Assembly: GCA_036339465.1 (NCBI GenBank)
Contig: JAYZAY010000007.1
Coordinates: 1-20,724, forward strand
From: Myxococcota bacterium
GTDB lineage: Bacteria > Myxococcota > XYA12-FULL-58-9 > JABJBS01
DNA: 20,724 nucleotides
Direction of reading: 5' to 3'
The notes beneath the pieces are model-generated. The model saw only the letters and a program-made list of their open reading frames with translations, searched no databases and had not been told where the DNA came from. This document shows, one piece after another, positions 1,647-18,620 of this stretch (positions within the stretch are counted from its first letter, which is position 1; each line of letters opens with the position of its first letter). Made by a program: the position numbers and the translations under genes.

Positions 1647-2003
1647 AGCCAGGAAGATGGTGTTGATTTAATGTAAATGGTTTAGCCTAACTCTTCTTGT
1701 CTGAACGATAGCCTTGCACTTTTTTGTTTCAATGGATTTCGGATTACTGAATTTTTTATTCTTTGATCACGAAGTTCGCGCCTATGTGAGAAACCTCACG
1801 TTCTGATTCGAGAATATAATTATAGGGAACCGTTTTGAGAAAAATAACAACCCAATGCATCCTCCAACCTATATGGACTCTTGAACCTAGACAGTGTTTC
1901 AGGGGGAACAAGGTTACTTGTTTTACTCGCTTTAGCGCTAGCGCGCTTGGGGTTGAGTTTCCTCGGAACGACTTGATCTTAATATTTATACGGAGGATTT
2001 ATA

Positions 2004-2447
2004 ATGCAAACACCAACGTTTACAACTAGAAATATTCAAACCTGTGCATCATCGCTCGTGGCACCTTCAAGCGTGAAACAAGATCCGGCCAAGACAGAGG
2101 CACCAGAATTTTCAACTCGCGACATAGGCACCTGTGCTTCATCGATGGTCGCACCTTCAAACACCAAAGATTCATTCACTCGCAGTGAACAGGAACCCTC
2201 GTTCACGACCAAAAACATTCAAAACTGTGCGTCCTCTATGAACAGCGTGAGCAATGCTAGCGCTGTTTTCGGCAAAGACGTACAGCACAAAGACGTACAG
2301 CACAAAGACGTACAGGCCAAAAACGTACAGCACAAAGACGTACAGCACAAAGACGTACAGGCCGAAGAGGAAGTATTCAAAAAAGCTCACTCCTCCAAAT
2401 TCAAGCGGCTAATGAGTCAGTTTTCCGGATTTTTTGGCCGGCGTTAA
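2004..2447 (+). CDS. Putative multi-core RiPP precursor / radical SAM substrate protein
   Basis: 147 aa with RBS GGAGG (1992-1996) 7 nt before the ATG. Three repeats of PxF[TS]T[RK][ND]Ix[TN]CASS[LM] contain the only Cys residues (C14, C44, C75). First gene ahead of the PqqD-type RRE and two radical SAM genes. Confidence 0.8.
   Translation: MQTPTFTTRNIQTCASSLVAPSSVKQDPAKTEAPEFSTRDIGTCASSMVAPSNTKDSFTRSEQEPSFTTKNIQNCASSMNSVSNASAVFGKDVQHKDVQHKDVQAKNVQHKDVQHKDVQAEEEVFKKAHSSKFKRLMSQFSGFFGRR
2013..2252 (+). repeat. Three ~90-bp degenerate cassette repeats encoding the CASS motif
   Basis: PTFTTRNIQTCASSLVAPS / PEFSTRDIGTCASSMVAPS / PSFTTKNIQNCASSMNSVS, period 30-31 aa. 2041-2070 and 2131-2160 match at 26 of 30 nt. 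Confidence 0.9.
2274..2363 (+). repeat. In-frame 15-bp tandem repeat x6 (KDVQH/KDVQA)
   Basis: Unit AAAGACGTACAGCAC, arranged as two 45-bp blocks (H-H-A): 2274-2318 and 2319-2363, which differ at one base. Confidence 0.97.
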
Positions 2448-2462
2448 TTCATAGCTTTGAGG

Positions 2463-2495
2463 AGGGTTAGATTTTAAGATCTAGCCCTTTCCTTT
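2463..2495 (+). terminator. Stem-loop between the precursor and maturase genes (leaky terminator or mRNA stabiliser)
   Basis: AGGGTTAGAT (2463-2472), loop TTTAAG, ATCTAGCCCT (2479-2488). 10-bp stem with one G-U pair, followed by an imperfect U-tract TTCCTTT. Confidence 0.55.
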
Positions 2496-2513
2496 AACAT
2501 TGCGGGAGAAACC

Positions 2514-3056
2514 ATGCGGATCCCTAAATTACATCCAGACCTCAAATTACGGCCTCACGAGGCAATCGCCTATGACCGTAGGCGCTCTCAAATTTTTGAA
2601 TTCAATTCGACCGGTGAGGCCATTTTACGATTGGTCGATGGCCAAGCCGATGAAGCCACCATCGCAGCGAGCCTCGCCAAACAAGAGCAAGAAGATCCAG
2701 CCAGTTGCCTAGAGATCTGTCGGCATTTCCTAGAGCAATGCGCGGCCGCGGATCTTATCGCGTGGTCACAAGCGACCCCACCCGCAAACTCAACCAAAGT
2801 ACCGATGCTAAAACGCCGGTTTCGCATTCGAAAAGATGAGCCAATTGGGTACTGCGGCAGTCGTTCGCAAATTTTCCATTTCAATTCGACGGCTTACCAA
2901 ATATTGCTCGCGGTCAATGGGGAGCGAAATATTCGGGCAATTGCGATGCGATTGGCCAAAGGAAATTCTGCCCATGCCACTGACAAACTCCAAGAGTGTC
3001 TCATTTTTCTCCACAAGTGTGAACAACAAGACCTTATTGAATGGAGATGTTCATGA
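2514..3056 (+). CDS. Standalone tandem PqqD-family protein (two RiPP recognition elements)
   Basis: 180 aa made of two similar ~85-aa halves: RSQIFEFNSTGEAILRLVDG..IAASLAK..FLEQC...DLIAW and RSQIFHFNSTAYQILLAVNG..IAMRLAK..FLHKC...DLIEW. Each fits the PqqD pattern (LNxTg..Iw.l.DG...i...l...v..fl..l...gli). RBS GGGAG at 2504-2508. Confidence 0.9.
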   Translation: MRIPKLHPDLKLRPHEAIAYDRRRSQIFEFNSTGEAILRLVDGQADEATIAASLAKQEQEDPASCLEICRHFLEQCAAADLIAWSQATPPANSTKVPMLKRRFRIRKDEPIGYCGSRSQIFHFNSTAYQILLAVNGERNIRAIAMRLAKGNSAHATDKLQECLIFLHKCEQQDLIEWRCS

Positions 3057-3997
3057 ATAAGATAAACGCGCCATTTTTTGCAGTTTGGTACATGACTCGC
3101 CGATGCAACCTTGCTTGCAAACACTGCTTTATTGAGGTGATGCCGACAAATACCAAGCCCAAGGAATTATCAACCGATGAAGGCAAAGAGTTGATTGACC
3201 GTCTCGCTGATGCCGACGTCTACCAATTGGCCTTTGCCGGTGGCGAGCCCCTTGTGCGGCCTGACCTCTTGGAATTGGCTCGTTATGCACGAGATGCCGG
3301 CATGACTGTTCAGTTGGCGACGAACGGCCTTGGTATTGTTCCAGAACGCGTTAAGGAGCTTTTGGGGGCTGGCTTTCGCTGTGTTCAGATTAGTCTCGAT
3401 GGCGCGACGCCATCAACCCATGACCGGTTACGAGGTTCTGGGCACTTTGAGACAACAATCGCGAGCATTCGTCACGCAACCGAAGGTGGTTTACCGGTGG
3501 TGCTTGCGATTGCTGTTCATCGGGGTAATCTCCATGAGGTAGATTTGATGATAAAACTCGCCCAAACGGAGAAGGCGATTATCCTAAAACTGCAACCCGT
3601 TTGGACACAGTTTAACCTAGGAGGTAACTCTTCTGCTTTAGAGCTGGCCGAAATCCAAGCGTTGGTGCCCAAGGTAGAAACGTTGGCGACGAGCGCTGGT
3701 ATCAAACTATCGTTACCTCGCTACACCCAAATTGTTGCCGAAGCGGGGGCAGAGCGCACCTGCTTGAGTGATTTGCGCGTTGCGACCATTTCTTCTACCG
3801 GTAGGCTTGGCATCTGTGATTTCGCTCCTGAACTGGCTTCAGGCGATGTGTTGAGGGATGCGTTTTTGCCATTGTGGAAGCGGGTCGTGCAAAACCACCA
3901 ACGCAATCAGCGATGTGGCTGTACACCGTTTTTAGAACGTCTAGACGAAACCGATTCTTCTAATTCCATTCAACTTTCTGCCGGAGCGAGACTATGA
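3053..3997 (+). CDS. Radical SAM enzyme, PqqE/MftC-like, with truncated (Twitch-like) auxiliary domain
   Basis: CNLACKHC, GGEP, TNG and ISLDG motifs. The C-terminus has C-x12-G-x4-C and then only CGC. Start moved from 3041 to 3053 because of the ATGA overlap with the upstream stop and GGAG at 3043-3046. Confidence 0.93.
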   Translation: MNKINAPFFAVWYMTRRCNLACKHCFIEVMPTNTKPKELSTDEGKELIDRLADADVYQLAFAGGEPLVRPDLLELARYARDAGMTVQLATNGLGIVPERVKELLGAGFRCVQISLDGATPSTHDRLRGSGHFETTIASIRHATEGGLPVVLAIAVHRGNLHEVDLMIKLAQTEKAIILKLQPVWTQFNLGGNSSALELAEIQALVPKVETLATSAGIKLSLPRYTQIVAEAGAERTCLSDLRVATISSTGRLGICDFAPELASGDVLRDAFLPLWKRVVQNHQRNQRCGCTPFLERLDETDSSNSIQLSAGARL

Positions 3998-5160
3998 CGA
4001 ATATGACCCAGTCTTGGAAGCACAGTGCGCCGTGGTCAGTGACCTGGTACATCACCAAACGTTGTAATCTTTTATGCAAGCACTGCTTTGTTTACGAAGA
4101 AGGCGAGATCCCAAAACGGTCCGAGCATGAATTGTCTTTCGAAGATGCTTGTAAAGTGGTGGACCAACTCGCTGAGGCAGGTGTGTTCAGTATAGCCTTC
4201 GGAGGCGGCGAGGTATTCACCCTCTCTTGGTTTTGTAAACTCGTGGAACACTGCAGTACGCGCGGGGTCGAGGTCTTTTTGTCCACCAATGGCGCTCTAC
4301 TCACCGATGAAAAGGCCGCGCGGCTCCGCAAGGCCGGGGTTCAAGTGGTGCAATTAAGCCTTGATGGCGCGACCGCGCAAACCCATGATGCCATCCGAGG
4401 TAAGGGGAATTTTGCTAAAGTGCTGCAAGCGGCTGAACGTTTGCATCGCCACGGAATCATTCCTCAATTTGCATTTACGCTGATGCGACAAAACCAGGGT
4501 GAAGTTCATCGTTTACTCGAGCTCTGCCTTGAAAAGAAAATACCGTTGTTCAAACTTCAATTATTTATTCCCAGCGGACGAGCCGACGAGGAGGCCGAAT
4601 TTGCTTTGGAACCGGAGAAGTTTCAAGCTTTGGTTGAAGATATTCGTGCCTTTGAAGAGGCCCAAGAAGGAAGGTTTCGAGTTGATTACCCCTGCTTCAT
4701 GGGACACATTGGCGATAAAGCAACACTTAATTGGCAACCAAAAAATCCCGCAACCCAATTGAGCTGCGGCGCAGGAACTACCCGAGCAGTTATTTTTGAG
4801 AATGGCGGCCTGGGTAATTGTGAGTTTATGCGCAGCGACCAAATTGGCGATTTGCGAAACGATTCGTTTATGCAGCTTTGGAATAGTGATGCTCCCGCCA
4901 TGGAGCGTTGGCGACGATTGGATTTAGTGGGTGGAAAATGCGGTAGCTGTGGCTATCAAGCTGAATGTGGGATGGGATGCCGGGCCAATGCGTATTTTGC
5001 CGGTGGTGACTTTTTTGGCGACGATCCCGCATGCATCGCGGAGGCTCCGAAAGGCGTGACTCATCCGCATTTAATCAGTCCAAAAGCAGCGCCCCGTAAT
5101 CACCGATTGGCACCACCGTCTCGCAATTCTGAATTGGTTCAGATCGGAGTACCCCGCTAA
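3994..5160 (+). CDS. Radical SAM/SPASM peptide maturase, PqqE/MftC-like
   Basis: CNLLCKHC, GGGE, STNG and LSLDG motifs. Complete 7-Cys SPASM: C-x12-G-x4-C ... CGSC-x5-C-x3-C ... DPAC. ATGA overlap with the preceding gene. Confidence 0.95.
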   Translation: MTNMTQSWKHSAPWSVTWYITKRCNLLCKHCFVYEEGEIPKRSEHELSFEDACKVVDQLAEAGVFSIAFGGGEVFTLSWFCKLVEHCSTRGVEVFLSTNGALLTDEKAARLRKAGVQVVQLSLDGATAQTHDAIRGKGNFAKVLQAAERLHRHGIIPQFAFTLMRQNQGEVHRLLELCLEKKIPLFKLQLFIPSGRADEEAEFALEPEKFQALVEDIRAFEEAQEGRFRVDYPCFMGHIGDKATLNWQPKNPATQLSCGAGTTRAVIFENGGLGNCEFMRSDQIGDLRNDSFMQLWNSDAPAMERWRRLDLVGGKCGSCGYQAECGMGCRANAYFAGGDFFGDDPACIAEAPKGVTHPHLISPKAAPRNHRLAPPSRNSELVQIGVPR

Positions 5161-5161
5161 A

Positions 5162-5725
5162 ATGAGTATTTCACCGTCTTCCAAAATCCTAAATCGCGTT
5201 CAATTGCAACCAGAGGATGCTCCTACCCTCTTCAAGCTGATAGAACAAAACCGGGCCCATCTTTCTCCGTGGCTTCCCTGGGTGGATAGCACCCAAGCAG
5301 TTGGCCACAGTCTGGCCTTTATTGAGGCTAGCCTAAATGCCGCAACAACTGGCACCGCTTTACGTTTTGGGATCTTGGTCAATAACGAACTCGCTGGGAT
5401 GATTGGCCTCGAATCTCTTAATGCACCACCGAGAACCGCCCAGATTGGCTATTGGCTTGCCGCCCAAGAGCAAGGTCAGGGGATTATTAGAAGGATTCTC
5501 CCCGAGATTATAGAGCACGGATTCGAAACACTCGACCTCACGCGGGTGGAGATTAGGGTCTGTCCGAATAACCAGAGATCGCGCGCGATTCCACTCGCTT
5601 TAGGCTTTTGCCTCCAACAAGTGTTGCCTGCCGGCGAAACGAGTGGGGGCGTTGATTATGACCAAGAGCAATTCATTCTAAACAAAGCGGATTGGGCGCT
5701 CAAAATTCGGGAACCAACTCCATGA
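5162..5725 (+). CDS. GNAT N-acetyltransferase, RimJ/RimL family
   Basis: RimL-type signatures LIEQNRAHLSPWLPWV, AQIGYWL, QGQGI (acetyl-CoA loop) and NQRSRAIPLALGF. Starts 1 nt after the SPASM gene stop. Confidence 0.92.
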   Translation: MSISPSSKILNRVQLQPEDAPTLFKLIEQNRAHLSPWLPWVDSTQAVGHSLAFIEASLNAATTGTALRFGILVNNELAGMIGLESLNAPPRTAQIGYWLAAQEQGQGIIRRILPEIIEHGFETLDLTRVEIRVCPNNQRSRAIPLALGFCLQQVLPAGETSGGVDYDQEQFILNKADWALKIREPTP

Positions 5726-7146
5726 CGAGTTTGGTCCAAACTGCGTTGGAGCAGCACCGCGCTAGCTGTCATTTCCTTGACCGCCCCGCGAAAGCACCCC
5801 CGTTGGCAGAGTGGCCCCGGGGCGAGCGCCATGAGCTTTGTTTCCAAGGAGCACCCGCCATCCCCTATGGCCCCCAAGGCAGCCCCGTTCAAAAAACAAT
5901 GGTTGCCCCGCAGTCTACCACCGTTCCCATGGACTGGAATCACCTCACCCAATGGCTTGACCTTTCCCTAGGTGTCACTGCAACAGCCGGCCCTCCGAAC
6001 GACCCATATCCACTTCGGTCACATCCCTCTAGCGGTAACCTTCATCCTGTCGAGGCATATTTAATCATTCCTGGTGGGCATCCCCAACCGGCTGGGGTTT
6101 ATCATTTTCAAGGGATTGCACTGCAATTAACCAAACGGACCCAGTCCATAGAGTTGCCACCGGGACCAATCCTGCTCGGATTATCGCTTCTTCCAAAGCG
6201 CCAAGCCTGGCGTTACGGGGACCGCGGTTATCGCTACAGCTTATTGGACCTCGGCCATGCCATTGGTGCGCTGGCCCATGGTGCCTGCTCTTGGGGATGG
6301 CAACTCCATCCGGTGCAGCCAATCACCGACGACACCCTGCACCGTGCCTTAGGCTCCCATGGAACTCCAGGGATAGCACTAAGACTCTCCCAGCGGACTG
6401 AAAACGAAAGCGACAACGAACAAGGGATTGAATTATTGGAGCGACTCGCCCAACTCGGACCTCAACAATGGGTTGGGATACCTGAGCCGAGAACCCAAGA
6501 CGACTTCGAGTGGCCATTCTTGTCCGAGCAAATCCGAAGCACGAAGCGGCACTCGCGACCAACCGCTCGCCCCTTGATTAAAGTCCCAAGGCATTGGGTC
6601 GGAAATCAGGAGTGTCGCCAAACGATGCGTAAGCGCCGAAGCGCGGTCTCTTTCGATGCTCATTCACCACTTGCCACCAACCAGATGAAAGCCCTCTTGA
6701 CAGTCTGCGGCGAAGTGCTCCCGGGATCCCTTAAACTCCAGCTATTGATACATCGAGTAGAGGGATATACCCCAGGAATTTATCGTTATTCAACAACCGG
6801 TCCCCTCGCCCCAAACCACGCTCCCGAGCTCTTAGAACCAATCGAACAAAACCAACTGCGAAACATGACCGGTTGTTTCGCCGCGAGACAAGAAATTGCA
6901 ATCCGCTCAGCTCTCAGCATAATAATCCACGCTCCTCTCCAACAGACCCTAGAAGAAAACGGCTCGGCCCACTATCGAGAGCTACTCTTAGACACCGGTA
7001 TTCTGGGCTACAGCTTCTACCTCACGGCCCAAGCCTATGGGTTTGGCGTCCGGGGCATTGGTGCATTTTACGATTCACGCTTCCCCGATCTACTCGGAGC
7101 CCATGACCATCAACCGCTCTACCTCATGTCATTCGGGAATTCGTAG
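5722..7146 (+). CDS. SagB/ThcOx-like FMN-dependent dehydrogenase with two nitroreductase-fold domains
   Basis: Domain 1: LRSHPSSGNLHPVEAY and WRYGDRGYRYSLLDLGHA. Domain 2: RKRRSAVSFD, IHRVEGYTPGIY and YRELLLDTG..GYSFYLTA...G.G..GIGAFYD. Start at 5722 preferred over 5692 because of the ATGA overlap with the GNAT stop. Confidence 0.88.
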   Translation: MTSLVQTALEQHRASCHFLDRPAKAPPLAEWPRGERHELCFQGAPAIPYGPQGSPVQKTMVAPQSTTVPMDWNHLTQWLDLSLGVTATAGPPNDPYPLRSHPSSGNLHPVEAYLIIPGGHPQPAGVYHFQGIALQLTKRTQSIELPPGPILLGLSLLPKRQAWRYGDRGYRYSLLDLGHAIGALAHGACSWGWQLHPVQPITDDTLHRALGSHGTPGIALRLSQRTENESDNEQGIELLERLAQLGPQQWVGIPEPRTQDDFEWPFLSEQIRSTKRHSRPTARPLIKVPRHWVGNQECRQTMRKRRSAVSFDAHSPLATNQMKALLTVCGEVLPGSLKLQLLIHRVEGYTPGIYRYSTTGPLAPNHAPELLEPIEQNQLRNMTGCFAARQEIAIRSALSIIIHAPLQQTLEENGSAHYRELLLDTGILGYSFYLTAQAYGFGVRGIGAFYDSRFPDLLGAHDHQPLYLMSFGNS

Positions 7147-8046: not shown

Positions 8047-8350
8047 GAACGCCCCTTACCCTTTCAACCTCCACCAAATCAAGGCCCTCGGTTCTGAGAA
8101 AAGGCCTTTAAAATAGCCAAGAGAAGCTGTGTCGCCATGGAGTAATTGTTCCCCAAGCAGGAGACATCCGCACTTTTAATCTGGATTTTCGCACCCAAAG
8201 TGGGAACCGTTGAACGCGGCTCCCACCTTATACCAACCCCCATCCCCATGCCCCGATTTCTCTCTACTCGACAATTCGGTGGTCTTGTTATTGTCGTATC
8301 ACCGTGCTAACTCCGCCAGCCCCGCAAAACCAGAAGAAGAGGAAAATAAC

Positions 8351-9070
8351 ATGTTTACCCGAACATCTTTACTATTAGCGGCCCTATGCTCTTTAGCCTG
8401 TGGTCCTGAAACCACTGAACCCAGCATTGTCAACGGTGCCAACACCGATGCCCAAGCGATTCGTGATATAGCCGGTGGTGGTCGCATTAAAGGTCGAATC
8501 AAAGTAGGACAAGCCCAAGAAGGCCGCACTCGAACTCAGGACTTCTGGCGCCTAACACTCTCACAAACCACCGACCTATGGATCGAACTCAATGCCTTTG
8601 ACGACGGAGATACCTATCTTGAACTCTATAAGAAAAACGGACCTCGTTGGCGAAAACTAGCCACCAACGATGACTGTGACGATTACACCTACGACGCCTG
8701 CCTAGGAAAGCAACTGCGGCGCGGCAGATATCTTCTTAAAGCCACCAGTTATGAATGGGTCAAAGAAGGTTCAAACAGTCTCACCACCTATGAATTGGCA
8801 GTCTACGGCAACAGCGAGGAGGAAGAGGAATTCGAAACTGGGCCTTGTGGCACTCCCGGTGGCATCACCTGTGGACCGAGAAAATATTGCCACTTTACGA
8901 TTCGCGACCAGTGCGGAAGGACAAACCGCGGTGGTAAGTGCCAAGAAAAACGTCAGGCTTGCACCCGTGATTATCGCCCCGTATGTGGATGCAACGGCAG
9001 AACTTACTCCAACAAATGTATGGCCAATAGCCAGGGAGCTTCGGTTGAATCAAACGGTCGCTGCCGATAA
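8351..9070 (+). CDS. Lipoprotein with a PPC-like (pre-peptidase C-terminal) domain and a C-terminal Kazal-type protease inhibitor domain
   Basis: Start at 8351 follows GAGGA and gives signal MFTRTSLLLAALCSLAC (lipobox-like SLAC). PPC-like segment D.W.LTL...DTYLELY...LATNDD...L..GRYLL. Kazal segment CTRDYRPVCGCNGRTYSNKC...G.SV...GRC. Confidence 0.85.
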   Translation: MFTRTSLLLAALCSLACGPETTEPSIVNGANTDAQAIRDIAGGGRIKGRIKVGQAQEGRTRTQDFWRLTLSQTTDLWIELNAFDDGDTYLELYKKNGPRWRKLATNDDCDDYTYDACLGKQLRRGRYLLKATSYEWVKEGSNSLTTYELAVYGNSEEEEEFETGPCGTPGGITCGPRKYCHFTIRDQCGRTNRGGKCQEKRQACTRDYRPVCGCNGRTYSNKCMANSQGASVESNGRCR

Positions 9071-9602
9071 TCGTTTCGTTTCGGCTAAAGGGTAGCTCAC
9101 ACAGAAGTATGGGCACCAATCCGCCCCAAAAGTCCCTCCTAGAATATAAGCAACCTAGAAGACATCCACACCCAACACATCCGCCGGTCCCGCACTATTC
9201 CATTTTTAATGCAATACTTGGCGTGTTTCTTCTCCTTCGATATCATCGCCTAGAAGAAGCTCTAGATGACCCTTGGTAAGCAAGTCGGCAAAACACATGA
9301 AGGAGATTCTCAAGTTGCTTGCGGGATTTGGATTCCATTAAAACACCGGGAACCCCGCTTTTCAGAGTCGTCGCGCAGATAAAAAATGCCCTTCTCAAAG
9401 AAATTTTGGCGCACGATAGCCTTCTACATACATCGCGGGCGCCCCTCTAGACAGACGATTTATCCGAAGTAGGATCGCTTAGGAGACTCATTCTGGAAAA
9501 TAATCATTTTCTTGTACACCAAAAGCGTATGCAAGTGTAGGCCCTCTAAGATTTGTTTCCCCAAAAAAACTCTCTGGATAAGTATTAGGAGCTCCGTTAC
9601 TG

Positions 9603-12065
9603 ATGTCTCGCTATTTTCTCGTTCTCGTTTTACTCTTAATTTTCTTGTCCGGATGTTTCGCTCTAAATAATGCATCAAGTGAATGCGATGATTGCAAATC
9701 AGCGACCACCTGCCATGAGAACAAGTGCAGGAATATCTGTTCAGAGAAGGAGAAATGCGCCACCAATGAAGCATGCATCAACAGCGTATGCCTGCCCTAT
9801 TCGGAAGCATGCCAAAAAGAATCCGATTGCCTGAGTGGTTTCTTTTGTTTCGACCACGCGTGCATCTCCAAATACTCCAATGGCAATAAATGCACCGCCA
9901 ATAAAATGTGCCAAAGCGATTTTTGCATCGATGGGTTCTGCTGCTCCGCCCAATGTTCCACATGCCAGAGCTGTAATCCTGCCCTTGCCAATGCCCCGTC
10001 TGGCCAGTGCCATCCGGTTAGTGATGGAAAAGACCCACGGGACGAATGTATCAATCAAACCTCCTGTGATGGACAAGGATCATGTTGGGCCTTGGGCATC
10101 GGACAAGAGTGTCACCACGACGAGCAATGCTTTGGTGGCTCTTGTGAACCCGCCACCAGCACCTGCCAAGCCGTGGTTTGTGGGGATGGAATCATCGGTA
10201 AAGGAGAAGCGTGTGACGATGGCAATACCGACACTGATGATGAGTGCATCGAATGTAATAACTCTTTTTGTGGAGACGGCTTTCTGCATAAAACCAATGA
10301 GACATGCGATGACGGCGCACTCAATTCAGATAAATATCAACGAACCTCTCATTGTAACGCCACGTGCACGGGTTTGGCCCCCTATTGCGGCGACAACAAT
10401 ACCAACGGGCCGGAAGAGTGTGATGACGGAGATAATATAGATGATGAATTATGCGATTTTGATTGCACTCTGCCGCAATGTCTAGATGGGCACCTTAATG
10501 TCTCATTTGGCGAGTCCTGCGATGATGGAATCCAAACCGCGAGATGCAACCACGACTGTAGCCCACAAAAGTGTGGAGATTTGAAACTCAATACCGCTGC
10601 AGGCGAGCAATGCGATGACGGAGACCAAGTCGATGATTCAATATGCGATTTTGATTGCAGTTTTAGAGAATGTGGGGACAAATACACCAACACCGTCTCC
10701 GGGGAAGAGTGTGACGACGGCAATGAAAGCAATACCGACAATTGCATCGAGTGCCAAAACGCCCGGTGCGGAGACGGTTACCTGCATTGGTCCACCGAGA
10801 CATGCGATGATGGCGATGACCTCAACGCCGACGATTGGGCCCCATCCATTAGAGAGGCACATTGCGACAAAGTTTGTTCCGGAATGGCTCCCCATTGCGG
10901 CGATGGCCTCGTCAATGGGAAAGAAGAATGTGACGACGGCGACAATCTAAACGATAAACTCTGCGACTTTAACTGCACGTTTTCAAAATGTGGGGACGGT
11001 GATATCAACACCGCGGCGGGGGAAGAATGTGATGACGGAAACACTTTAGACGATGAACGCTGCGACTTTGACTGCAGCTTGAGAGAATGTGGGGACAATT
11101 ACACCAACACCGAGGCAGGGGAAGAATGTGACGACGGCAACAACAACCTCAACGACAACTGCCCGAGTGGAGACGCTGGAACCTGTCAGCCAGCGTTCTG
11201 TGGGGACGGCTACATTTACAACCAAGAACAAGGGCAAGAGCTTTGTGATGAGGGATCGCTCAACGGCACCATACACAGTGCAGACGTCAGTTGTTCATCG
11301 GTCTGCACGCCCTATGTGACTGTGGGCGATCTCACCTTTTCATGGTCCGATGATCGAACAGCTACAAACCAAATACTCGATGCAGCAGAGCTCCAGCTAA
11401 CGCCGCTCATGGGTGGTGAATTTCAGAGAACTGTTGATTTTCTAAAGCGCAAAGACATTCGAATCATCGTTAAAGGGAACCTAAGCATTCGCGGCGCGCC
11501 ATCGGCACGCATCCCGATTCTAAGCCAAATTGCGAAGGTCACCGGTTATCTCGAAACAGGAGTTTACCAAAACGCTATGCTATTTATCCCGCGCCATAAT
11601 GCTATGGAAGAGGACAAACTCTGCGAATTGGACCTCTCCAATTTGCGGTATGTCGGTGCCTGGCTCAAGTTAGGGGGAAACCAAAATGTTTGGGAAAGCG
11701 GGATTAACGGTATTGCTTCAGTCACTTATGATTTCAAAAACCCGAACCTTAAAGTTGTTTACTTAAACAAATTGGAGCAGGTGGTTGCCGACCTAAACGC
11801 TGGAAAAATGGCGGCACTGAAGAGATTCCAGCTTTCAAGCACACTAGGGGACAGCGAATTACAAGCTTGTAGTATCGACTTTCAAATTAGGCCCTACTGT
11901 ATTTCGGGCTTAGGAGAAAGCGTTGCCGTCGCAAACAATCCTGATGAAAGAAGTAACTGTGACAAGGAACCACTCGATGGCCACAATAGACTGGATGCCT
12001 GCCCTGAAATTTTGCCGAGCTTATTTGGCCCCGAGCGAACCAATATTGATGATCTTTGTCCCTAA
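9603..12065 (+). CDS. Cys-rich repeat lipoprotein (myxobacterial DUF4215-type repeats) with an L-domain/LRR-like C-terminus
   Basis: Lipobox LSGC after a hydrophobic signal, N-terminal Cys-rich knots, and 11 CGD/CLD...E.CD[DE]G repeats. The C-terminal LDLSNLRYVGAWLKL / YLNKLEQVVADL segments resemble receptor-L-like repeats. AGGAG at 9587-9591. Confidence 0.85.
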   Translation: MSRYFLVLVLLLIFLSGCFALNNASSECDDCKSATTCHENKCRNICSEKEKCATNEACINSVCLPYSEACQKESDCLSGFFCFDHACISKYSNGNKCTANKMCQSDFCIDGFCCSAQCSTCQSCNPALANAPSGQCHPVSDGKDPRDECINQTSCDGQGSCWALGIGQECHHDEQCFGGSCEPATSTCQAVVCGDGIIGKGEACDDGNTDTDDECIECNNSFCGDGFLHKTNETCDDGALNSDKYQRTSHCNATCTGLAPYCGDNNTNGPEECDDGDNIDDELCDFDCTLPQCLDGHLNVSFGESCDDGIQTARCNHDCSPQKCGDLKLNTAAGEQCDDGDQVDDSICDFDCSFRECGDKYTNTVSGEECDDGNESNTDNCIECQNARCGDGYLHWSTETCDDGDDLNADDWAPSIREAHCDKVCSGMAPHCGDGLVNGKEECDDGDNLNDKLCDFNCTFSKCGDGDINTAAGEECDDGNTLDDERCDFDCSLRECGDNYTNTEAGEECDDGNNNLNDNCPSGDAGTCQPAFCGDGYIYNQEQGQELCDEGSLNGTIHSADVSCSSVCTPYVTVGDLTFSWSDDRTATNQILDAAELQLTPLMGGEFQRTVDFLKRKDIRIIVKGNLSIRGAPSARIPILSQIAKVTGYLETGVYQNAMLFIPRHNAMEEDKLCELDLSNLRYVGAWLKLGGNQNVWESGINGIASVTYDFKNPNLKVVYLNKLEQVVADLNAGKMAALKRFQLSSTLGDSELQACSIDFQIRPYCISGLGESVAVANNPDERSNCDKEPLDGHNRLDACPEILPSLFGPERTNIDDLCP

Positions 12066-12305: not shown

Positions 12306-13166
12306 TCAGGACCGCTGTTTAAGAAACTTCGAAACAAACACCGCCAAACCCCAAAGAAACACTCCCACCATGGTTTGTGACGGGCCCACCGGAAAATCAT
12401 AGAGAAAAGCTAAAACATAGCCGAAAAATCCACATCCCCCCCCTACCCCGGCGGCTAGAATCATCGCTCGTGGAATATTGGAAGCCAAACCAATCGCGGC
12501 CATGGCCGGAAAAACACTGAACGCAAAGGAAGGCAATGCGCCCAATACCCTCGTGCATACGGAAACGGAGAGAGCAATGGTCAACATGAGGATGAACTTA
12601 AGCGCCTGGACAGGCATGCCCCGCACCTCAGACGTGCTCTCATCGTAAGTGACTTCCACAAATCCACGCCACCACCAAAGATGTAATCCCAAAATAAGAA
12701 CGCCAAAAATCAGGACCGTTTGAAAATCTTCGGGTAGCACCGCCACCGAACTCCCAAAGAGTAGGGTTTGAACATCATGCAGTTCTTCGACGATTTTGGA
12801 CGCCACCATCAAGGTACCTGCTGATCCCACCAAAAAGATGAGGCCCAGCATGCTGTCGCGGTGGGTTCGGTCACTTTCTCGATTGCTCCAAATCAGGCCC
12901 AAACAGGAAATGCTCAATATTGAGGCCCCCATGGTGGGTGAGGCAACAATCGCTGCGACCCCAAAATAGGCTTGGGCCGCATAGGCGAGGGTCACCCCAA
13001 ACCCCGCTACTTGAGAAAGGGCCGCCGATAAAAACACCATTCTTCCAAGCACGATATAAACCCCCAGGAATCCAAGCAAGATCCCTGCAAGCGTACCCGT
13101 CAGCACCGAGTCCTGAAAAAGGGGCCAAGCGTCCCAAAAGGCATTCATATCAGTGGTCGCAGTCAT
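12306..13166 (-). CDS. Metal (Zn/Mn/Fe) ABC transporter permease, ZnuB/ABC-3 family
   Basis: GFLGVYIVLGRMVFLSAALSQVAGFG, LLFGS and DE..S.V.GMPV motifs with multiple TM helices. Start placed at 13166 (GAGGAG at 13171-13176, overlapping the ATPase end) rather than 13241; 13148 is an alternative. Confidence 0.9.
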   Translation of the reverse strand: MTATTDMNAFWDAWPLFQDSVLTGTLAGILLGFLGVYIVLGRMVFLSAALSQVAGFGVTLAYAAQAYFGVAAIVASPTMGASILSISCLGLIWSNRESDRTHRDSMLGLIFLVGSAGTLMVASKIVEELHDVQTLLFGSSVAVLPEDFQTVLIFGVLILGLHLWWWRGFVEVTYDESTSEVRGMPVQALKFILMLTIALSVSVCTRVLGALPSFAFSVFPAMAAIGLASNIPRAMILAAGVGGGCGFFGYVLAFLYDFPVGPSQTMVGVFLWGLAVFVSKFLKQRS

Positions 13167-13926
13167 GACACTCCTCAGGATCGGGTATCGGGCCAAAGCG
13201 ATCTTCCACCACACTTCGGAGCAACCGACCAAAGTGTTCATGGACCTCGTGGTGAACTGCCACGTCGCGAATATCTCCTTCGATGATGAGCTGGTGCTCT
13301 CGATCTAAGAGCAACGCATGGGTGGCCACAGAAGCCATCCCCATAAGATTGTGGCTGACCAACACCACCGAAAGATTCCGTTCCTTTCGAAGTCGGTTTA
13401 GGAGTTCTAACATCTCCATTTCCGTTTGGTTGTCCATGGCGCTGGTGGGTTCATCCAGCACCAAAAGATTGGGATTACATACCAAAGCCCGGGCCATGAG
13501 AACGCGCTGCTTTTGACCTTCGCTCAACTCGGCAAGCTGTTGCCGAGCGATGTCATGGATGCGGGTTTGTTCCATGGCCAAATCGATGGTTTCCTTTTCA
13601 CGATAGGTATGAAGGGGATCAACAAACGACCAACCCCTAGCAGCGCCCCCCCGAACCACGTCAATGGCCCGGGCAGGCATGGTCAAATCTAGACTCATTC
13701 GCTGAGGGACGTAGCCCACGCGGAGTTCGCTCTGCTCAACGATCTCGCCACCTAGCTTTGGTAGCAACCCCAACATCGTTTTAAGCAGGGTGGATTTTCC
13801 ACTACCATTGGAACCCGCAATGCCCCACAATTGCCCAAACTCGATTTGCGCGGAAATCGAAGGCAAAATCGGCCGGCCCATATAGCCAACCTCCAAATCT
13901 TGTAAGTGCAAAAGAGTGTTTGTCAT
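13150..13926 (-). CDS. Metal ABC transporter ATP-binding protein, ZnuC-like
   Basis: Walker A GSNGSGKS, Q-loop GYVPQ, signature LSEGQKQR, Walker B LLVLDEP and H-loop VSH. Confidence 0.95.
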   Translation of the reverse strand: MTNTLLHLQDLEVGYMGRPILPSISAQIEFGQLWGIAGSNGSGKSTLLKTMLGLLPKLGGEIVEQSELRVGYVPQRMSLDLTMPARAIDVVRGGAARGWSFVDPLHTYREKETIDLAMEQTRIHDIARQQLAELSEGQKQRVLMARALVCNPNLLVLDEPTSAMDNQTEMEMLELLNRLRKERNLSVVLVSHNLMGMASVATHALLLDREHQLIIEGDIRDVAVHHEVHEHFGRLLRSVVEDRFGPIPDPEECHDCDH

Positions 13927-14319: not shown

Positions 14320-17300
14320 TTAGTTTACAAAATCACACCCCAACGTGCACTCGGCGACAAGACCATTACTGAATTCGCCCACACAGGCTCCGCACATATT
14401 GTAGTCCCGCCCATTCACCGTCAAAAAGCACCCCGAAGTGGCGGTGCGGTCGCAATGGTTTTCGCATTCGCTGGTGGTCGACCCATCGAACTTTAAATAG
14501 CACGCATTGCGGCAAGACAATTGCTGATTGCACGACACATCGGTCTCACTATTTTGAAAACCTGAATCGATGCAGTAGTTCAAACAAGCATCAAATTTGT
14601 TTTGACGAACTTCCACCTCGGGGTCGTAAAAACAATCGTAGGTGAAACCATTTCCTATTTGGGGATCAAGCGGCAACATTTCTTGCCCATTTAAGAGAAT
14701 AGGCGGTGTTATCTGCGAATCTTCTGGGATTGAGTCCAACGGGGTTACCTTATATTTGTACGGCCAAACCGGGCTATACCCATTCACAAAAGGCGTCACA
14801 TCATCGATTTCCACAGGCGGAGTCGGAACCGGCAAAAGATAAATAGTGGACTCCCGTCCCTCGGGGGTTTCAATCATCACATTCTCCACTTTACGCCCGG
14901 GGATCTTGTAGTATTGAGGACGGTTGGCTCGAACCTCCTCGCCTTCTGTCCCCGAGTCCACCACGACTATGCGAGACGAAAAGAATCGAGCATCCTCTTT
15001 GCACATTTGATTAAACCCAATCGCGTAGCTTGTATCGGGATAGAGGTAAGGAGCAACCTCAAATTCAAGCCCTATCTCGTAGCGAGATCCGCCAGGAACC
15101 GAGGCAATCCGAATAGCATTATAAGCGAAACTACCTGGATTGGTTAAGGCAGGGCTATCTTCCCAAACGCCGTTGGTTCCGGTAGAAGCATCTAAATCGA
15201 GTTGAACTTTCAGGCTGTCTGGTGTGCAATTAGGGCCGCTGTTGGTGGTGCACCACTTTTCAATATTATCAAAAGGTTGCTGCTCTCGGTCGTAATAATG
15301 ATGTCCTAGCTTAGGCCAATCCCAAGTCACAATATGAGCGGCGTAATTGCCAAAAAGGTCGCCTAAATCTTGATTTTCTTGCGCCAAATAAAAGCGCATT
15401 TTTTGCAAAGTACTGCCTGGCGTCTCATCGGTATCCGCTGCAAGACGCCCTATCAAATACGGCTTTGCTGCGTAATGACTCACAAAGGTCCACCAAACAT
15501 TTAGGCCATAGAAACGAGCCCCTAAAGCGAGGTCGCCGATATTACGGCCATGGTAAGGCTGCGGGTATTTCAGAACATGCATCTCATTTAGAGAATCCCA
15601 TCGACCCTCCATTGCCAATGGCACCATAGGAAAATAGGTAAGCCCAGAATTCATCCATGATTTTGCACCCGCAAAAAGGTAGTACGCCATGATTTCCGCG
15701 AAGGACTCCCCTGAGATGCCTCGAATGTAGTGATTCAATTTATTATAGGTGCGCATAATCGTGAAATGAGCGGCATGGCCATGCTCATGAACCGGTCGCT
15801 GCCAGCCCGAGTAAAGATCCACATCATACGAATCCCACCGAGTCCATCCCCCGCTTTCCGCTATCTTTCGATGGTCGGCCGACGTTGGCTCGTTTGGAAA
15901 ATCTTCGGGCAACCAATTGAAGCCCTGAAATAAATCTGTGACGTATTTACAAGGGTTATTGTAGTTACGGGGCTCGCCACAGGTTGCTGGATCAGCACAG
16001 AGATTGCTTTCGGGCGTATAGTTTCGGTAGGTGTTCTTCGAATTCTCAGGAGCAAGAGCCCGAGTATCCACATAGGGGATGAAATCCATCTCAAAAAACA
16101 TCTGCTCATGCCATCTATCCCAAAAACCCACCATGCGCCTGAGGTTATCGAGGAAGCTCGGGTCCGTGGGAGGAAACGTATCACCTTCAGGGATCCACAT
16201 GGTGACGTAGACCCCACTGGAAAAACTTTGAGTCGCGTGGTTGGGCACAATAGCGTAGCCCCCCATTCCCCAGGAATAACGCCGATTGGATTTTGGGTAC
16301 CCGTCAGCAATAGCGTAATCACCGGCGTTGCTGCAGCGTTTGCCTATCTCGTCGATTTCAGAAGGCGTGAGCTTGCGGTTATTGCCATAGAGCCGAACGT
16401 CCCAAATCTTGGCATTGGCGGCGCCCACTTGCATCACCTCTAATGGAGTCGCGCTTGATGCGACGTGATTGGCGACCGTACTCATTCGCAAACCCGGAAT
16501 GGTTGTCGCGATGCTGCCTAAATAAACCGTGGCGTCTTCATTATCGGATAAAACCAGAGTAAATTGATTGCATTGATAATTTTTGACCGTGGCGGAAAAA
16601 GCGGTTTCCCCTCCAATGCTGTGAGTCACATCGCCGACCACCAAGGAGAGAGCGTCGTTGTTCAACTGCGCCCGGATGCCCAGACCCTCAAAGAGCGTGC
16701 CGCTCATGGTAGGAGGATCCATGTCCCAAACATGCATGAATTTAAACGCGAACGTAAGCCCTTGGGATTGGGAAATGCGGTCTATGTCCAGCGAGGTTTT
16801 GGCCGTCACTGAAAGGGTCTTGTTGGTAAAATCGGTTCGGCTCGTAAAATTCCCCAGAGATTCATTTTGGATCTCGCTCATGGCAATACTTGCGGTAAAT
16901 TGGCTGGTGGGGTTCAGGCCGCGGGTGGAGGTGCGGGGCGCCAAATTCGACCAAGTCACGCTTAGGGGCAAGAAAATCTCTAAGTCGTTATCGTAGGCAC
17001 TCTCGCCATGAAAGTTGTGCGCCTCACATTTGCACTCCCCCGAAGCTAAACAGCGATGCACCGGATCAGCCCGGCAAACCCCTTTGTTTTTGATGGTTCG
17101 CATCCAACTGCACCCCTTCGTGCTTACACACAAATGATGCTTCGAAATGTCTTTACAAGACGACACCGGAAACTGCCCGGGAATATAAAGCGGCTTGGCA
17201 TATTCAAGGAAATAGGGCGAGCTGCTGACGGTTTCGCAACTTCCGTCGTCACCTGTGGCATCGAGGTTATAATTCAAAGCCCTTGGATTCGTGCAGCCCA

Positions 17301-17994
17301 AAACCGTGTTGCAGGCTGTCCAATCACTCCATTGCCCGTTAACACATACTCGACTCTGATTACCATTGTTGTTGTCGCCACAGGCTTGTTGTGCAGTCGC
17401 ACCGGTGGTGCAAACATCGGGATCTGCGCAATCACCAAAAGCTCCCCAAGCCCCATCGGTGCAGGTGCGAATTTGAGATCCGTTTTCATTGAGGCCACAG
17501 GCTTGTTGTGCAGTCGCACCGGTGGTGCAAACATCGGGATCTGCGCAATCACCAAAAGCTCCCCAAGCCCCATCGGTGCAGGTGCGAATTTGAGAGCCGT
17601 TTTCATTGAGGCCACAAGATTGCTGCTCTTGGGCCCCCGTCTCGCAGTCATTTTCGTTTGCTGGTGCGCAGTCGCTGTCATTGGAATTGGTACATCCCGG
17701 TGCGCAACAATCATCCCCAAAAACACAAGCAGTAATCGCTGTGTGAGTGCAACGCACCGAGCATTCAGACGCAGATCCACTCAATACATCGGAAGTACAA
17801 ATATTGTTATCGTTGCATATCGTTGGGCAATTGCCATCGCATATTTCAGCGGCCTCGATGATGCCGTTACCGCATTGGTTTTCATCAATGGGTTCCGAGA
17901 CAGAAGGGTCACAACCGATACCAACCAACAACAAGGTCAGGATTGTGCTAACAAAGGTTTGAGAAATCGTTCGAAAAAAAAGCGCCCCTAGCAT
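14320..17994 (-). CDS. Large secreted lipoprotein: Cys-rich repeats, LamG-like domain and putative HExxH zinc metallopeptidase domain
   Basis: Signal ending in GIGC. Start 17994 follows AAGGGAG (18009 is an alternative). Contains a CGNG..EAAEICDG repeat, 39-aa Cys repeats, a GCTNPRALNYNLDATGDDGSC repeat, LamG-like IWDVRLY..RKLTPSEI, HEHGH-x22-ESFAE and a Cys-rich C-terminus. Confidence 0.8.
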   Translation of the reverse strand: MLGALFFRTISQTFVSTILTLLLVGIGCDPSVSEPIDENQCGNGIIEAAEICDGNCPTICNDNNICTSDVLSGSASECSVRCTHTAITACVFGDDCCAPGCTNSNDSDCAPANENDCETGAQEQQSCGLNENGSQIRTCTDGAWGAFGDCADPDVCTTGATAQQACGLNENGSQIRTCTDGAWGAFGDCADPDVCTTGATAQQACGDNNNGNQSRVCVNGQWSDWTACNTVLGCTNPRALNYNLDATGDDGSCETVSSSPYFLEYAKPLYIPGQFPVSSCKDISKHHLCVSTKGCSWMRTIKNKGVCRADPVHRCLASGECKCEAHNFHGESAYDNDLEIFLPLSVTWSNLAPRTSTRGLNPTSQFTASIAMSEIQNESLGNFTSRTDFTNKTLSVTAKTSLDIDRISQSQGLTFAFKFMHVWDMDPPTMSGTLFEGLGIRAQLNNDALSLVVGDVTHSIGGETAFSATVKNYQCNQFTLVLSDNEDATVYLGSIATTIPGLRMSTVANHVASSATPLEVMQVGAANAKIWDVRLYGNNRKLTPSEIDEIGKRCSNAGDYAIADGYPKSNRRYSWGMGGYAIVPNHATQSFSSGVYVTMWIPEGDTFPPTDPSFLDNLRRMVGFWDRWHEQMFFEMDFIPYVDTRALAPENSKNTYRNYTPESNLCADPATCGEPRNYNNPCKYVTDLFQGFNWLPEDFPNEPTSADHRKIAESGGWTRWDSYDVDLYSGWQRPVHEHGHAAHFTIMRTYNKLNHYIRGISGESFAEIMAYYLFAGAKSWMNSGLTYFPMVPLAMEGRWDSLNEMHVLKYPQPYHGRNIGDLALGARFYGLNVWWTFVSHYAAKPYLIGRLAADTDETPGSTLQKMRFYLAQENQDLGDLFGNYAAHIVTWDWPKLGHHYYDREQQPFDNIEKWCTTNSGPNCTPDSLKVQLDLDASTGTNGVWEDSPALTNPGSFAYNAIRIASVPGGSRYEIGLEFEVAPYLYPDTSYAIGFNQMCKEDARFFSSRIVVVDSGTEGEEVRANRPQYYKIPGRKVENVMIETPEGRESTIYLLPVPTPPVEIDDVTPFVNGYSPVWPYKYKVTPLDSIPEDSQITPPILLNGQEMLPLDPQIGNGFTYDCFYDPEVEVRQNKFDACLNYCIDSGFQNSETDVSCNQQLSCRNACYLKFDGSTTSECENHCDRTATSGCFLTVNGRDYNMCGACVGEFSNGLVAECTLGCDFVN
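17377..17616. repeat. Near-perfect 117-bp in-frame tandem duplication
   Basis: Copies start at 17377 and 17494 with one mismatch (17479 vs 17596). The unit encodes a 39-aa module CGLNENGSQIRTCTDGAWGAFGDCADPDVCTTGATAQQA. Confidence 0.97.
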
Positions 17995-18620
17995 TGCGAC
18001 TCCCTTCATGAAGTTGGGGCAAGATAAGTTAGCGCGGCGTTAAAAGCAATGCGTGAGAACCGAGGGGGCCCGTGGGTTCTTTCGCAAACCCGGGCGTTTT
18101 TTCAAGCTTAGCTCCCCCAGTCACACCGCCTCCACCGAGGGTTTACCTATTTAACATTCTCTGCCCGTAGATACATCAGTTCGCGGGAAAACCCAGTCAT
18201 ACTACCAGTTCACCGCGTGTATCCCCTACCGCCTGCTTAATCTCTTTTCTTTCTGGTTGGTGAATCATAAATTTTCGATAGATTATTGTGACGTGTGCCC
18301 TGAGGCTTCTAGAGTGTGCTCGTAACCAAGACTTCCCGCAGGTGTCACCGGCTGAGCCTAAAGCTGAGCACACGGCGACTGAACTTCCCCGAAAACAAGC
18401 TGGCCAATCATACGCATACTGTTTTGCGACACCGTGAGTATATTGGCAAGAGCTTGGACCTGAATGCCATAAGATGTGTCGGCAATTCTTAATTCGCTCT
18501 AAGAACAAAGGAAGTAGGCAAGGCAGGGGATTTAAAAAAAGTTAGAACAGTCTTGCCTTTGCCACTGGCTGCGACATTGTTTTTTTGCTGCGCCTTATTT
18601 CTCCGACAATCAAAAATCCC

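Follow-up and report, generated by a model that had tools for sequence, protein, structure and literature searches.

A six-gene cluster in a Myxococcota genome that probably encodes an RRE-dependent radical SAM pathway acting on a CASS-cassette precursor peptide

Results

Genes of the cluster

We analysed a stretch of 20,724 nucleotides from a Myxococcota bacterium (contig JAYZAY010000007.1, genome G000; the whole stretch is called the window below), in which six open reading frames (ORFs), all on the + strand, span positions 2004-7146 (5.1 kb). They encode a small repeat-containing peptide, which we take as the candidate precursor of a ribosomally synthesized peptide with post-translational modifications (RiPP), a tandem RiPP recognition element (RRE) protein, two radical S-adenosylmethionine enzymes (rSAM1 and rSAM2), a RimL-like GNAT acyltransferase, and a SagB-like flavoprotein. 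The ORF calls agreed with the six co-oriented genes proposed in a preliminary description of this DNA, and Pfam and NCBIfam searches confirmed the families assigned there: a PqqD-type RRE, two rSAMs, a GNAT and a SagB-like protein.

1992..1996, + strand: Shine-Dalgarno sequence GGAGG, 7 nt before the precursor ATG, read from the sequence
2004..2447, + strand: precursor peptide gene, 147 aa; ORF, with homologous small ORFs in L005, L011 and P0264 (see below)
2514..3056, + strand: tandem RRE protein gene; Pfam PqqD, TIGR03859
3053..3997 (possible start also at 3041), + strand: rSAM1 gene; Radical_SAM, CX3CX2C, truncated SPASM-like C-terminus
3994..5160, + strand: rSAM2 gene; Radical_SAM and full SPASM domain
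5162..5725, + strand: RimL-like GNAT acyltransferase gene; Acetyltransf_3, 1e-19
5722..7146 (possible start also at 5692), + strand: SagB-like tandem nitroreductase-fold flavoprotein gene, 474 aa; TIGR03605

The strong ribosome-binding site claimed for the repeat-containing ORF corresponds to the GGAGG listed above, and the three ATGA overlaps and 1-nt gap said to join the enzyme genes were all present in the sequence. The TGA stop of the RRE gene (3054-3056) overlaps the rSAM1 ATG at 3053 (ATGA, 3053-3056); the rSAM1 stop (3995-3997) overlaps the rSAM2 ATG at 3994 (ATGA, 3994-3997); the rSAM2 stop (5158-5160) is followed by the single base 5161 and then by the GNAT ATG at 5162; and the GNAT stop (5723-5725) overlaps the SagB-like ATG at 5722 (ATGA, 5722-5725).

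Related loci and distribution

Two further loci, L005 (a contig of genome G114) and L011 (a contig of genome G095), were found to have all six genes in unchanged order and with the same Pfam domains; their DNA is 69% GC as against 50% in the window. Identities to the window proteins were 37-41% for the precursor, 37% for the RRE protein, 49-51% for rSAM1, 60-61% for rSAM2, 32-34% for the GNAT, and 28-29% for the SagB-like protein; in L005 an ATGA overlap again joins the two rSAM genes. Because this set of genes, with the small ORF among them, is found again in two genomes whose GC content is very different, the arrangement is far beyond chance. The window cluster is flanked by a K-channel-like gene and a HAD hydrolase gene, and the clusters in L005 and L011 by a thioredoxin/TPR gene, among others; since the flanking genes differ, the conserved unit is exactly these six genes.

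A scan of species-representative genomes with rSAM2 gave 12 pattern matches, which came down to one locus, L005 (61% identity). Of 401 genomes searched from the window's phylum, three (G000, G114 and G095) had the gene when a profile of the rSAM2 subfamily was used, and it was found in none of the five genomes searched from the same family; order-level and class-level searches around G095 covered the same 20 genomes, two of which had a match. The cluster is thus rare. Of the 19 database clusters in the rSAM2 subfamily, two can be assigned to the three loci, either by identity or from their place in the tree. Two metagenome scans, one with the single rSAM2 protein and the other with a two-sequence alignment, gave 17 and 98 pattern matches, respectively, none of which was confirmed. 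Marine and seawater metagenome assemblies from four studies contain the window stretch itself, with an identity of at least 99%, and six runs contain at least half of its sampled words; among the 24 sequencing runs listed with it there was no RNA data set.

The precursor and its CASS cassettes

Three cassettes of the form P-x-F-x4-I-x-x-C-A-S-S (FTTRNIQTCASS, FSTRDIGTCASS and FTTKNIQNCASS) make up the first part of the precursor, and are followed by KDVQH repeats and a basic C-terminal tail ending in GFFGRR.

2043..2054, + strand: CASS core of cassette 1, residues 14-17, TGT GCA TCA TCG
2133..2144, + strand: CASS core of cassette 2, residues 44-47, TGT GCT TCA TCG
2226..2237, + strand: CASS core of cassette 3, residues 75-78, TGT GCG TCC TCT
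2273..2363, + strand: 15-nt tandem repeat, about 6 copies, encoding KDVQH; lineage-specific, inside the precursor gene

Cassettes 1 and 2 also form a direct DNA repeat of 60 nt (73% identical, 90 nt apart). The precursor has no separate leader, about 10 residues (P-x-[FV]-x4-I-x-x) preceding each invariant Cys-Ala-Ser-Ser, and its sequence contains no signal peptide. Each cassette has one Cys, and a conserved acceptor of one of the known types is not obvious in it. The precursor matched none of the Pfam or NCBIfam models.

In both L005 and L011 a small ORF of 86-87 aa lies directly upstream of the five enzyme genes and contains three cassettes (examples are ARQIDQCASSM, AQAIDTCASSM and RQAIDKCASSM), as expected if homologous loci keep the upstream CASS ORF, a point raised in the preliminary description. 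There is one precursor gene per genome, always beside the cluster, in all three genomes; a fourth variant, P0264, was found in the protein database. When the four variants were compared, all 12 of their 12 cassettes had C-A-S-S with Ile at position -3, and the Pro at -10 is also kept. Position -8 is mostly Phe; three of the four variants have Val there in their first cassette. Positions -1, -2 and +4 are variable. The F-x-T-x-[ND]-I motif originally proposed therefore holds within the window but not across lineages, where it relaxes to P-x-[FV]-x4-I-x-x-C-A-S-S. The codons for CASS vary among cassettes and genomes while the residues do not, from which we conclude that selection acts on the peptide; between the L005 and L011 precursors, 39 codons are identical, 25 differ synonymously, and 21 non-synonymously. 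The C-terminal tails differ between lineages, and conservation is confined to the cassettes. The number of KDVQH copies also varies: a database protein (P0001) has two copies, compared with about six in the window, and is otherwise identical, and metagenome contigs from four runs, fragmented but at least 99% identical to the window, all break at this repeat. This difference in copy number reflects either true variation in length or an error of assembly.

The tandem RRE protein

In its first half the RRE protein matched Pfam PqqD (aa 16-82, 2e-13, 50.9 bits versus a cut-off of 23.4), and in its second half (aa 119-175) the PqqD model TIGR03859; the PqqD equivalog score, 36 bits, was below the 46 required. 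A tblastn comparison showed that the protein is an internal duplication, with domains at aa ~1-86 and ~95-179. In an AlphaFold2 (AF2) model, built from an alignment of 3 sequences only (pLDDT 84), the strand-helix order is repeated twice, and the best fold matches were the leader-bound lasso-peptide RRE TbiB1 (TM 0.81) and PqqD (TM 0.71), with weak Foldseek E-values of about 3e-3. Both halves are thus modelled as RRE-type winged-helix domains.

The two radical SAM enzymes

Both enzymes matched the Pfam Radical_SAM family (3e-28 for rSAM1 and 1e-26 for rSAM2); a SPASM domain was called by Pfam in rSAM2 only. Outside its SAM-cluster motif rSAM2 has eight conserved Cys residues, which correspond to a full SPASM domain. 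In addition to CX3CX2C, rSAM1 has four conserved Cys residues (C...C...CGC) in a truncated SPASM-like C-terminus, which, judged by this pattern, probably holds one auxiliary cluster. Neither enzyme has an N-terminal RRE, because CX3CX2C begins near residue 20.

No curated NCBIfam cut-off was reached by either rSAM. For both, the best score was to AhbD (141 bits for rSAM1 and 178.6 for rSAM2, versus a cut-off of 500), and the scores to other cofactor-family models were likewise below cut-off: MftC, 121.9 and 156.3 bits (cut-off 265); PqqE, 117 and 101.8 bits (cut-off 381); and NirJ, 121 and 142.5 bits (cut-off 515). Among the sactipeptide and ranthipeptide families SkfB scored 76.8 bits versus 300, and StsB 98-101 versus 625; ACGX (122 bits), ScmE (92-105), ScmF (92-93), and GeoRSP (105-137) each have a cut-off of 400. 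Searches of solved-structure sequences with both rSAMs gave matches to the core domain only (SkfB, PqqE, BlsE and others); the best match of rSAM2 was SkfB, at 65.5 bits, and CteB (5wgg) was among the matches of rSAM1. A search of the ESM Atlas with rSAM1 found only generic rSAM/SPASM clusters.

A tight subfamily, made up of 19 database clusters that score 306-844 bits, includes rSAM2; the next match has 191 bits. We placed both enzymes in a tree of 52 rows: 18 from the subfamily, the L011 rSAM2, three rSAM1 sequences, and 30 rows chosen from 92 other matches and including all those labelled MftC, NirJ, haem synthase or TIGR04053; a 247-aa fragment, P0170, was left out. In this tree the rSAM1 sequences form the sister clade of the rSAM2 subfamily (SH-aLRT 95), although the program warned that long branches meet at this join, and the two together stand apart from the rows labelled MftC, AhbD, NirJ, AdoMet-dependent heme synthase and TIGR04053. 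The two rSAMs are therefore, on the evidence of their sequences, paralogues, and both the scores and the tree separate them from the cofactor enzymes; clustering with these enzymes was named in the preliminary description as an outcome that would speak against its reading.

The GNAT and the SagB-like flavoprotein

Besides its Acetyltransf_3 match, the GNAT scored 64.5 bits with the RimL model, versus a cut-off of 184. The SagB-like protein scored 94.5 bits with the TIGR03605 SagB domain model, above the cut-off of 78.4, and a search of 1.84 billion representatives gave 2674 homologues for it at E <= 1e-3, the best of them 33% identical. Its AF2 model (pLDDT 89.8) was built from an alignment of 60 sequences, namely the window protein, the two copies from the other loci, and 57 of the matches P0003-P0065, the other six having been dropped. 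The best fold match was PDB 3eo7 (Foldseek E = 5.7e-27, TM 0.74; family profile 222 bits), an unpublished structural-genomics 'putative nitroreductase' of unknown function; it was followed by the azoline oxidases BmdC, ThcOx and McbC, which are the nearest functionally characterised structures. According to the model, the SagB-like protein is a fused tandem nitroreductase pseudo-dimer of the 3eo7 type. The earlier term 'SagB-like oxidase' is thus correct as to domain family, but the protein is a two-domain pseudo-dimer of a large family of unknown function rather than a classic azoline-oxidase partner.

No YcaO gene is present in the cluster, and PF02624 was not found in G000 (92.78% complete) or in G114 (75% complete); of the three genomes only G095 has a match, on another contig. 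Since no YcaO was found in the cluster or in the 92.78%-complete G000, the protein is unlikely to act as a classic azoline oxidase partnered by YcaO, and we rejected a classic thiazole/oxazole-modified microcin (TOMM) system for lack of YcaO despite the SagB-family domain. A second two-domain SagB-like nitroreductase, 26% identical to that of the cluster (locus L006), lies at C39:8101-9762 in G000, where it adjoins metallo-beta-lactamase-fold, DUF309 and SelO genes with no RiPP genes nearby. Neither the C39 gene nor a SagB-like gene of genome G040 was accepted as linked to the system, as their neighbours (SelO, metallo-beta-lactamase, DUF309, glyoxalase) are unrelated.

A hairpin behind the precursor gene, and neighbouring genes

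The gap between the precursor and RRE genes contains a predicted hairpin.

2458..2493, + strand: RNA hairpin in the precursor-RRE gap, 10-bp core 2464-2473/2478-2487, then UUUCCUUU; z = -2.45

L005 and L011 each have a hairpin in the corresponding place (z = -2.64 and -3.31), and we infer that the element is likely to be an attenuator or an mRNA-stabilising structure. Rfam gave no match in the window. Upstream, between 1014 and 2003, there was no ORF of at least 60 aa with a family match, no Rfam match, and no promoter-like site on the + strand.

Downstream of the cluster, a 286-aa protein (8210-9070, + strand) has a C-terminal Kazal-type protease-inhibitor domain (Kazal_1, 2e-8), and an 820-aa protein (9603-12065, + strand) consists of cysteine-rich acidic repeats and scored 52.9 bits with TIGR02232 'myxo_disulf_rpt', in keeping with a host of Myxococcota type. 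Genes for a Zn/Mn-type metal ABC transporter permease and ATPase (12306-13926, - strand; AztB/AztA-like, below cut-offs) lie 5 kb downstream of the cluster and were not seen in the scanned stretches of L005 and L011. They are followed by an ORF of 1229 aa (14320-18009, - strand) that had no NCBIfam match at E <= 1e-5. In L005, a 288-aa ORF (8579-9445, - strand) resembles the C-terminal part of XopAD/skwp, at 111.7 bits versus a cut-off of 2000.

Comparison with known systems

Three generic sequence features of an RRE-dependent rSAM RiPP system were found: a conserved precursor ORF, a PqqD-type RRE, and CX3CX2C rSAMs with SPASM/Twitch domains. Mycofactocin (MftA/B/C/D) and PQQ (PqqA/D/E) biosynthesis share with the cluster a discrete PqqD-type chaperone beside an rSAM/SPASM enzyme and a small precursor, as well as the lack of a dedicated exporter, and MftC and PqqE were among the better-scoring rSAM models. 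In mycofactocin biosynthesis, moreover, a flavin-dependent oxidation comes later in the pathway. However, MftA-type precursors have a C-terminal Val-Tyr core, and the precursor described here carries CASS cassettes internally, three in number, in place of a single Val-Tyr or Glu...Tyr site at the C-terminus; the cluster also differs in having two paralogous rSAMs of a separate clade, a tandem-RRE chaperone, and a nitroreductase-fold oxidase. A scan of the cluster genes and their flanks detected no MftD, MftE/F or PqqB/C.

Maturases of sactipeptides and ranthipeptides (SkfB, CteB, PapB, QhpD) resemble the system in combining an rSAM with SPASM/Twitch domains and an RRE and in acting on Cys in a ribosomal peptide. 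The matches to them were low and limited to the rSAM core, a thioether in the product would here be hypothetical, and in those maturases the RRE is fused, whereas here it is a separate two-domain protein. ACGX, SynChlorMet (ScmE/ScmF) and GeoRSP systems, as defined in NCBIfam, likewise pair rSAM/SPASM enzymes with short Cys-containing or repeat peptides, and some cassettes of these types have two rSAMs each, but the model scores were far under the cut-offs. We also rejected an anSME-type formylglycine system, as the C/S-x-P/A-x-R motif of such systems is absent from the cassettes. Azoline dehydrogenases (SagB, McbC, ThcOx and BmdC, of TOMM, cyanobactin and nonribosomal peptide pathways) are, like the flavoprotein of the cluster, nitroreductase-fold enzymes using flavin mononucleotide (FMN); the latter differs in having no YcaO companion, in being a fused pseudo-dimer, and in having no RRE domains of its own, unlike ThcOx.

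Two other groups come close in single respects. In the poly-cyclopropylglycine TvgA/TvgB family and in WprB and other cross-link families, a short motif is reported to be repeated and each copy to be modified uniformly by one rSAM (PMC9062424, PMC11851443). Where those precursors have TVGG or an aromatic motif, the one described here has CASS, which is based on Cys, and its cluster encodes in addition another rSAM, a tandem RRE protein, a GNAT and a flavoprotein; no membership of these sequence families was found. The Pseudomonas pfl cluster contains a nitroreductase domain without YcaO (in PflD) and a GNAT (PflB), and the nitroreductase converts Phe to Z-dehydroPhe with a loss of 2 Da, as reported in a preprint whose authors suggest that other non-YcaO nitroreductases may form dehydroamino acids (PMC12636437). 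In that cluster the nitroreductase is fused to an MNIO, there is a HEXXH partner and neither an rSAM nor an RRE protein, and the precursor is unrelated.

Neither the gene combination nor the CASS cassette was described in the full-text literature searched, which did not cover subscription-only papers and supplements. Peptide pathways of this kind, RRE-dependent, with an rSAM and with a precursor that repeats a motif, are known, and this combination appears undescribed; the preliminary judgement that it is unlike the characterised classes agrees with this and with the absence of any rSAM score at a curated cut-off.

Discussion

The conserved CASS ORF, together with the scores and tree of the rSAMs, supports the peptide-modification pathway suggested earlier. 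We think it likely that the six genes form an operon for an uncharacterised RRE-dependent rSAM pathway of RiPP type, which acts on the cassette Cys and is followed by flavin-dependent dehydrogenation and acetylation. We propose that the RRE protein would bind the P-x-[FV]-x4-I segment of each cassette and present it to both rSAMs, possibly with one RRE domain for each enzyme; that rSAM2, with two auxiliary clusters, and rSAM1, with probably one, would abstract hydrogen at or beside CASS; that the tandem nitroreductase-fold FMN enzyme would then remove two hydrogens, either oxidising a new ring or introducing an alpha,beta-desaturation; and that the GNAT may acylate a freed amine or hydroxyl, as tailoring or for self-protection. 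The hairpin after the precursor gene could keep the precursor transcript in excess over the enzyme transcript. Cleavage and export, if any, would be carried out by genes outside the cluster.

As to the product, we tentatively suggest that the Cys sulfur might become joined to a neighbouring carbon, in a thioether of the sactipeptide or ranthipeptide type or in a small S-heterocycle, but we would give this less than even weight. A more specific version, in which the rSAMs make an S-heterocycle from each CASS without YcaO and the flavoenzyme aromatises it, so providing a radical route to azole-like or thiazine-like rings, seems unlikely to us. Should it be true, a single precursor might yield a small conserved compound in three copies, and the system would represent a new class of RiPP: its multi-cassette precursor would be leaderless and self-addressed, and its RRE adaptor, with two heads, would serve two enzymes.

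Several observations weigh against the proposed pathway. The chemistry is deduced from family membership only. Gene context was read in three genomes, which represent a minority of the rSAM2-subfamily clusters, so that the wider family may or may not keep CASS peptides; searches with the precursor yielded only the four near variants (1 match among 8 candidates, and 3 among 1246). Neither a protease nor a transporter is encoded in or beside the cluster at any of the three loci, which is unusual for a secreted RiPP. Pattern scans for promoters and terminators gave numbers at the shuffled expectation (7 versus 5.8 and 8 versus 7.5 expected, respectively). The SagB-like proteins of the different lineages, at 28-29% identity, are no closer to one another than to unrelated family members (best 33%), so that their orthology rests on position alone; the near-invariant Lys of the family motif W-K-Y-G is Arg (W-R-Y-G) at residue 164 of the window protein, the L005 protein retaining Lys; and paralogues of the family occur in non-RiPP contexts, including one in this genome.

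Some of the same observations could also be accounted for if the pathway made a small molecule or redox cofactor from the peptide, as in PQQ and mycofactocin biosynthesis: CASS would be rebuilt, cut out by housekeeping peptidases, three per precursor, and used within the cell. Such a product would agree with the invariance of all four core residues amid variable surroundings, with a cluster that has no exporter, protease or immunity gene and a precursor that has no signal peptide, and with a layout of discrete PqqD-type chaperone and rSAM/SPASM enzyme like that of PQQ and mycofactocin, MftC being among the best models for rSAM2 (156 bits). We nevertheless regard it as quite improbable. The patchy distribution (3 of 401 phylum genomes, none of five in the same family) is better explained by an accessory trait; no cofactor-dependent dehydrogenases adjoin the cluster; the cofactor-family models all scored below cut-off and the rSAMs form a separate clade; and each internal cassette would need two cuts, with no peptidase encoded.

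Still less probable, in our view, is that the modified polypeptide is itself the end product, a small cytoplasmic protein that remains uncleaved and uses three modified Cys sites in a metal or redox role. The absence of a protease, an exporter and a signal peptide would suit such a protein, as would the even construction of the three sites, and the lineage-specific tail, with its KDVQH repeats and basic end, could be a functional appendage. But it is the cassettes alone, and not the tails, that are conserved between lineages; the metal ABC transporter of the window was not seen in the scanned L005 and L011 stretches; and characterised RRE-dependent rSAM systems generally release a processed peptide. 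Finally, the idea that the small ORF is unrelated and that the rSAMs act on a non-peptide substrate, for example a tetrapyrrole as do AhbC, AhbD and NirJ, is largely refuted and has almost no credit with us: although AhbD, NirJ2 and AhbC are the top NCBIfam matches by score, they reach 141-179 bits where 500-650 are required, the rSAMs are in translational coupling with a two-domain RRE protein of the peptide-binding type, the small ORF shows protein-level conservation and accompanies the enzymes at three of three loci, and no haem or d1 genes are nearby.

The RRE-dependent peptide-modification pathway is thus the reading that we prefer. The operon is compact (5.1 kb, six genes) and therefore directly testable by heterologous co-expression. 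Its rarity limits the ecological weight of the cluster and, because many uncharacterised rSAM clusters exist, its value depends on the product. Once its chemistry were established, the cluster would stand for a precursor family that is new and probably for a new type of Cys modification, would give one branch of the two-domain SagB-like nitroreductase family its first function, and would show how one two-RRE adaptor can serve two rSAMs on a leaderless precursor.

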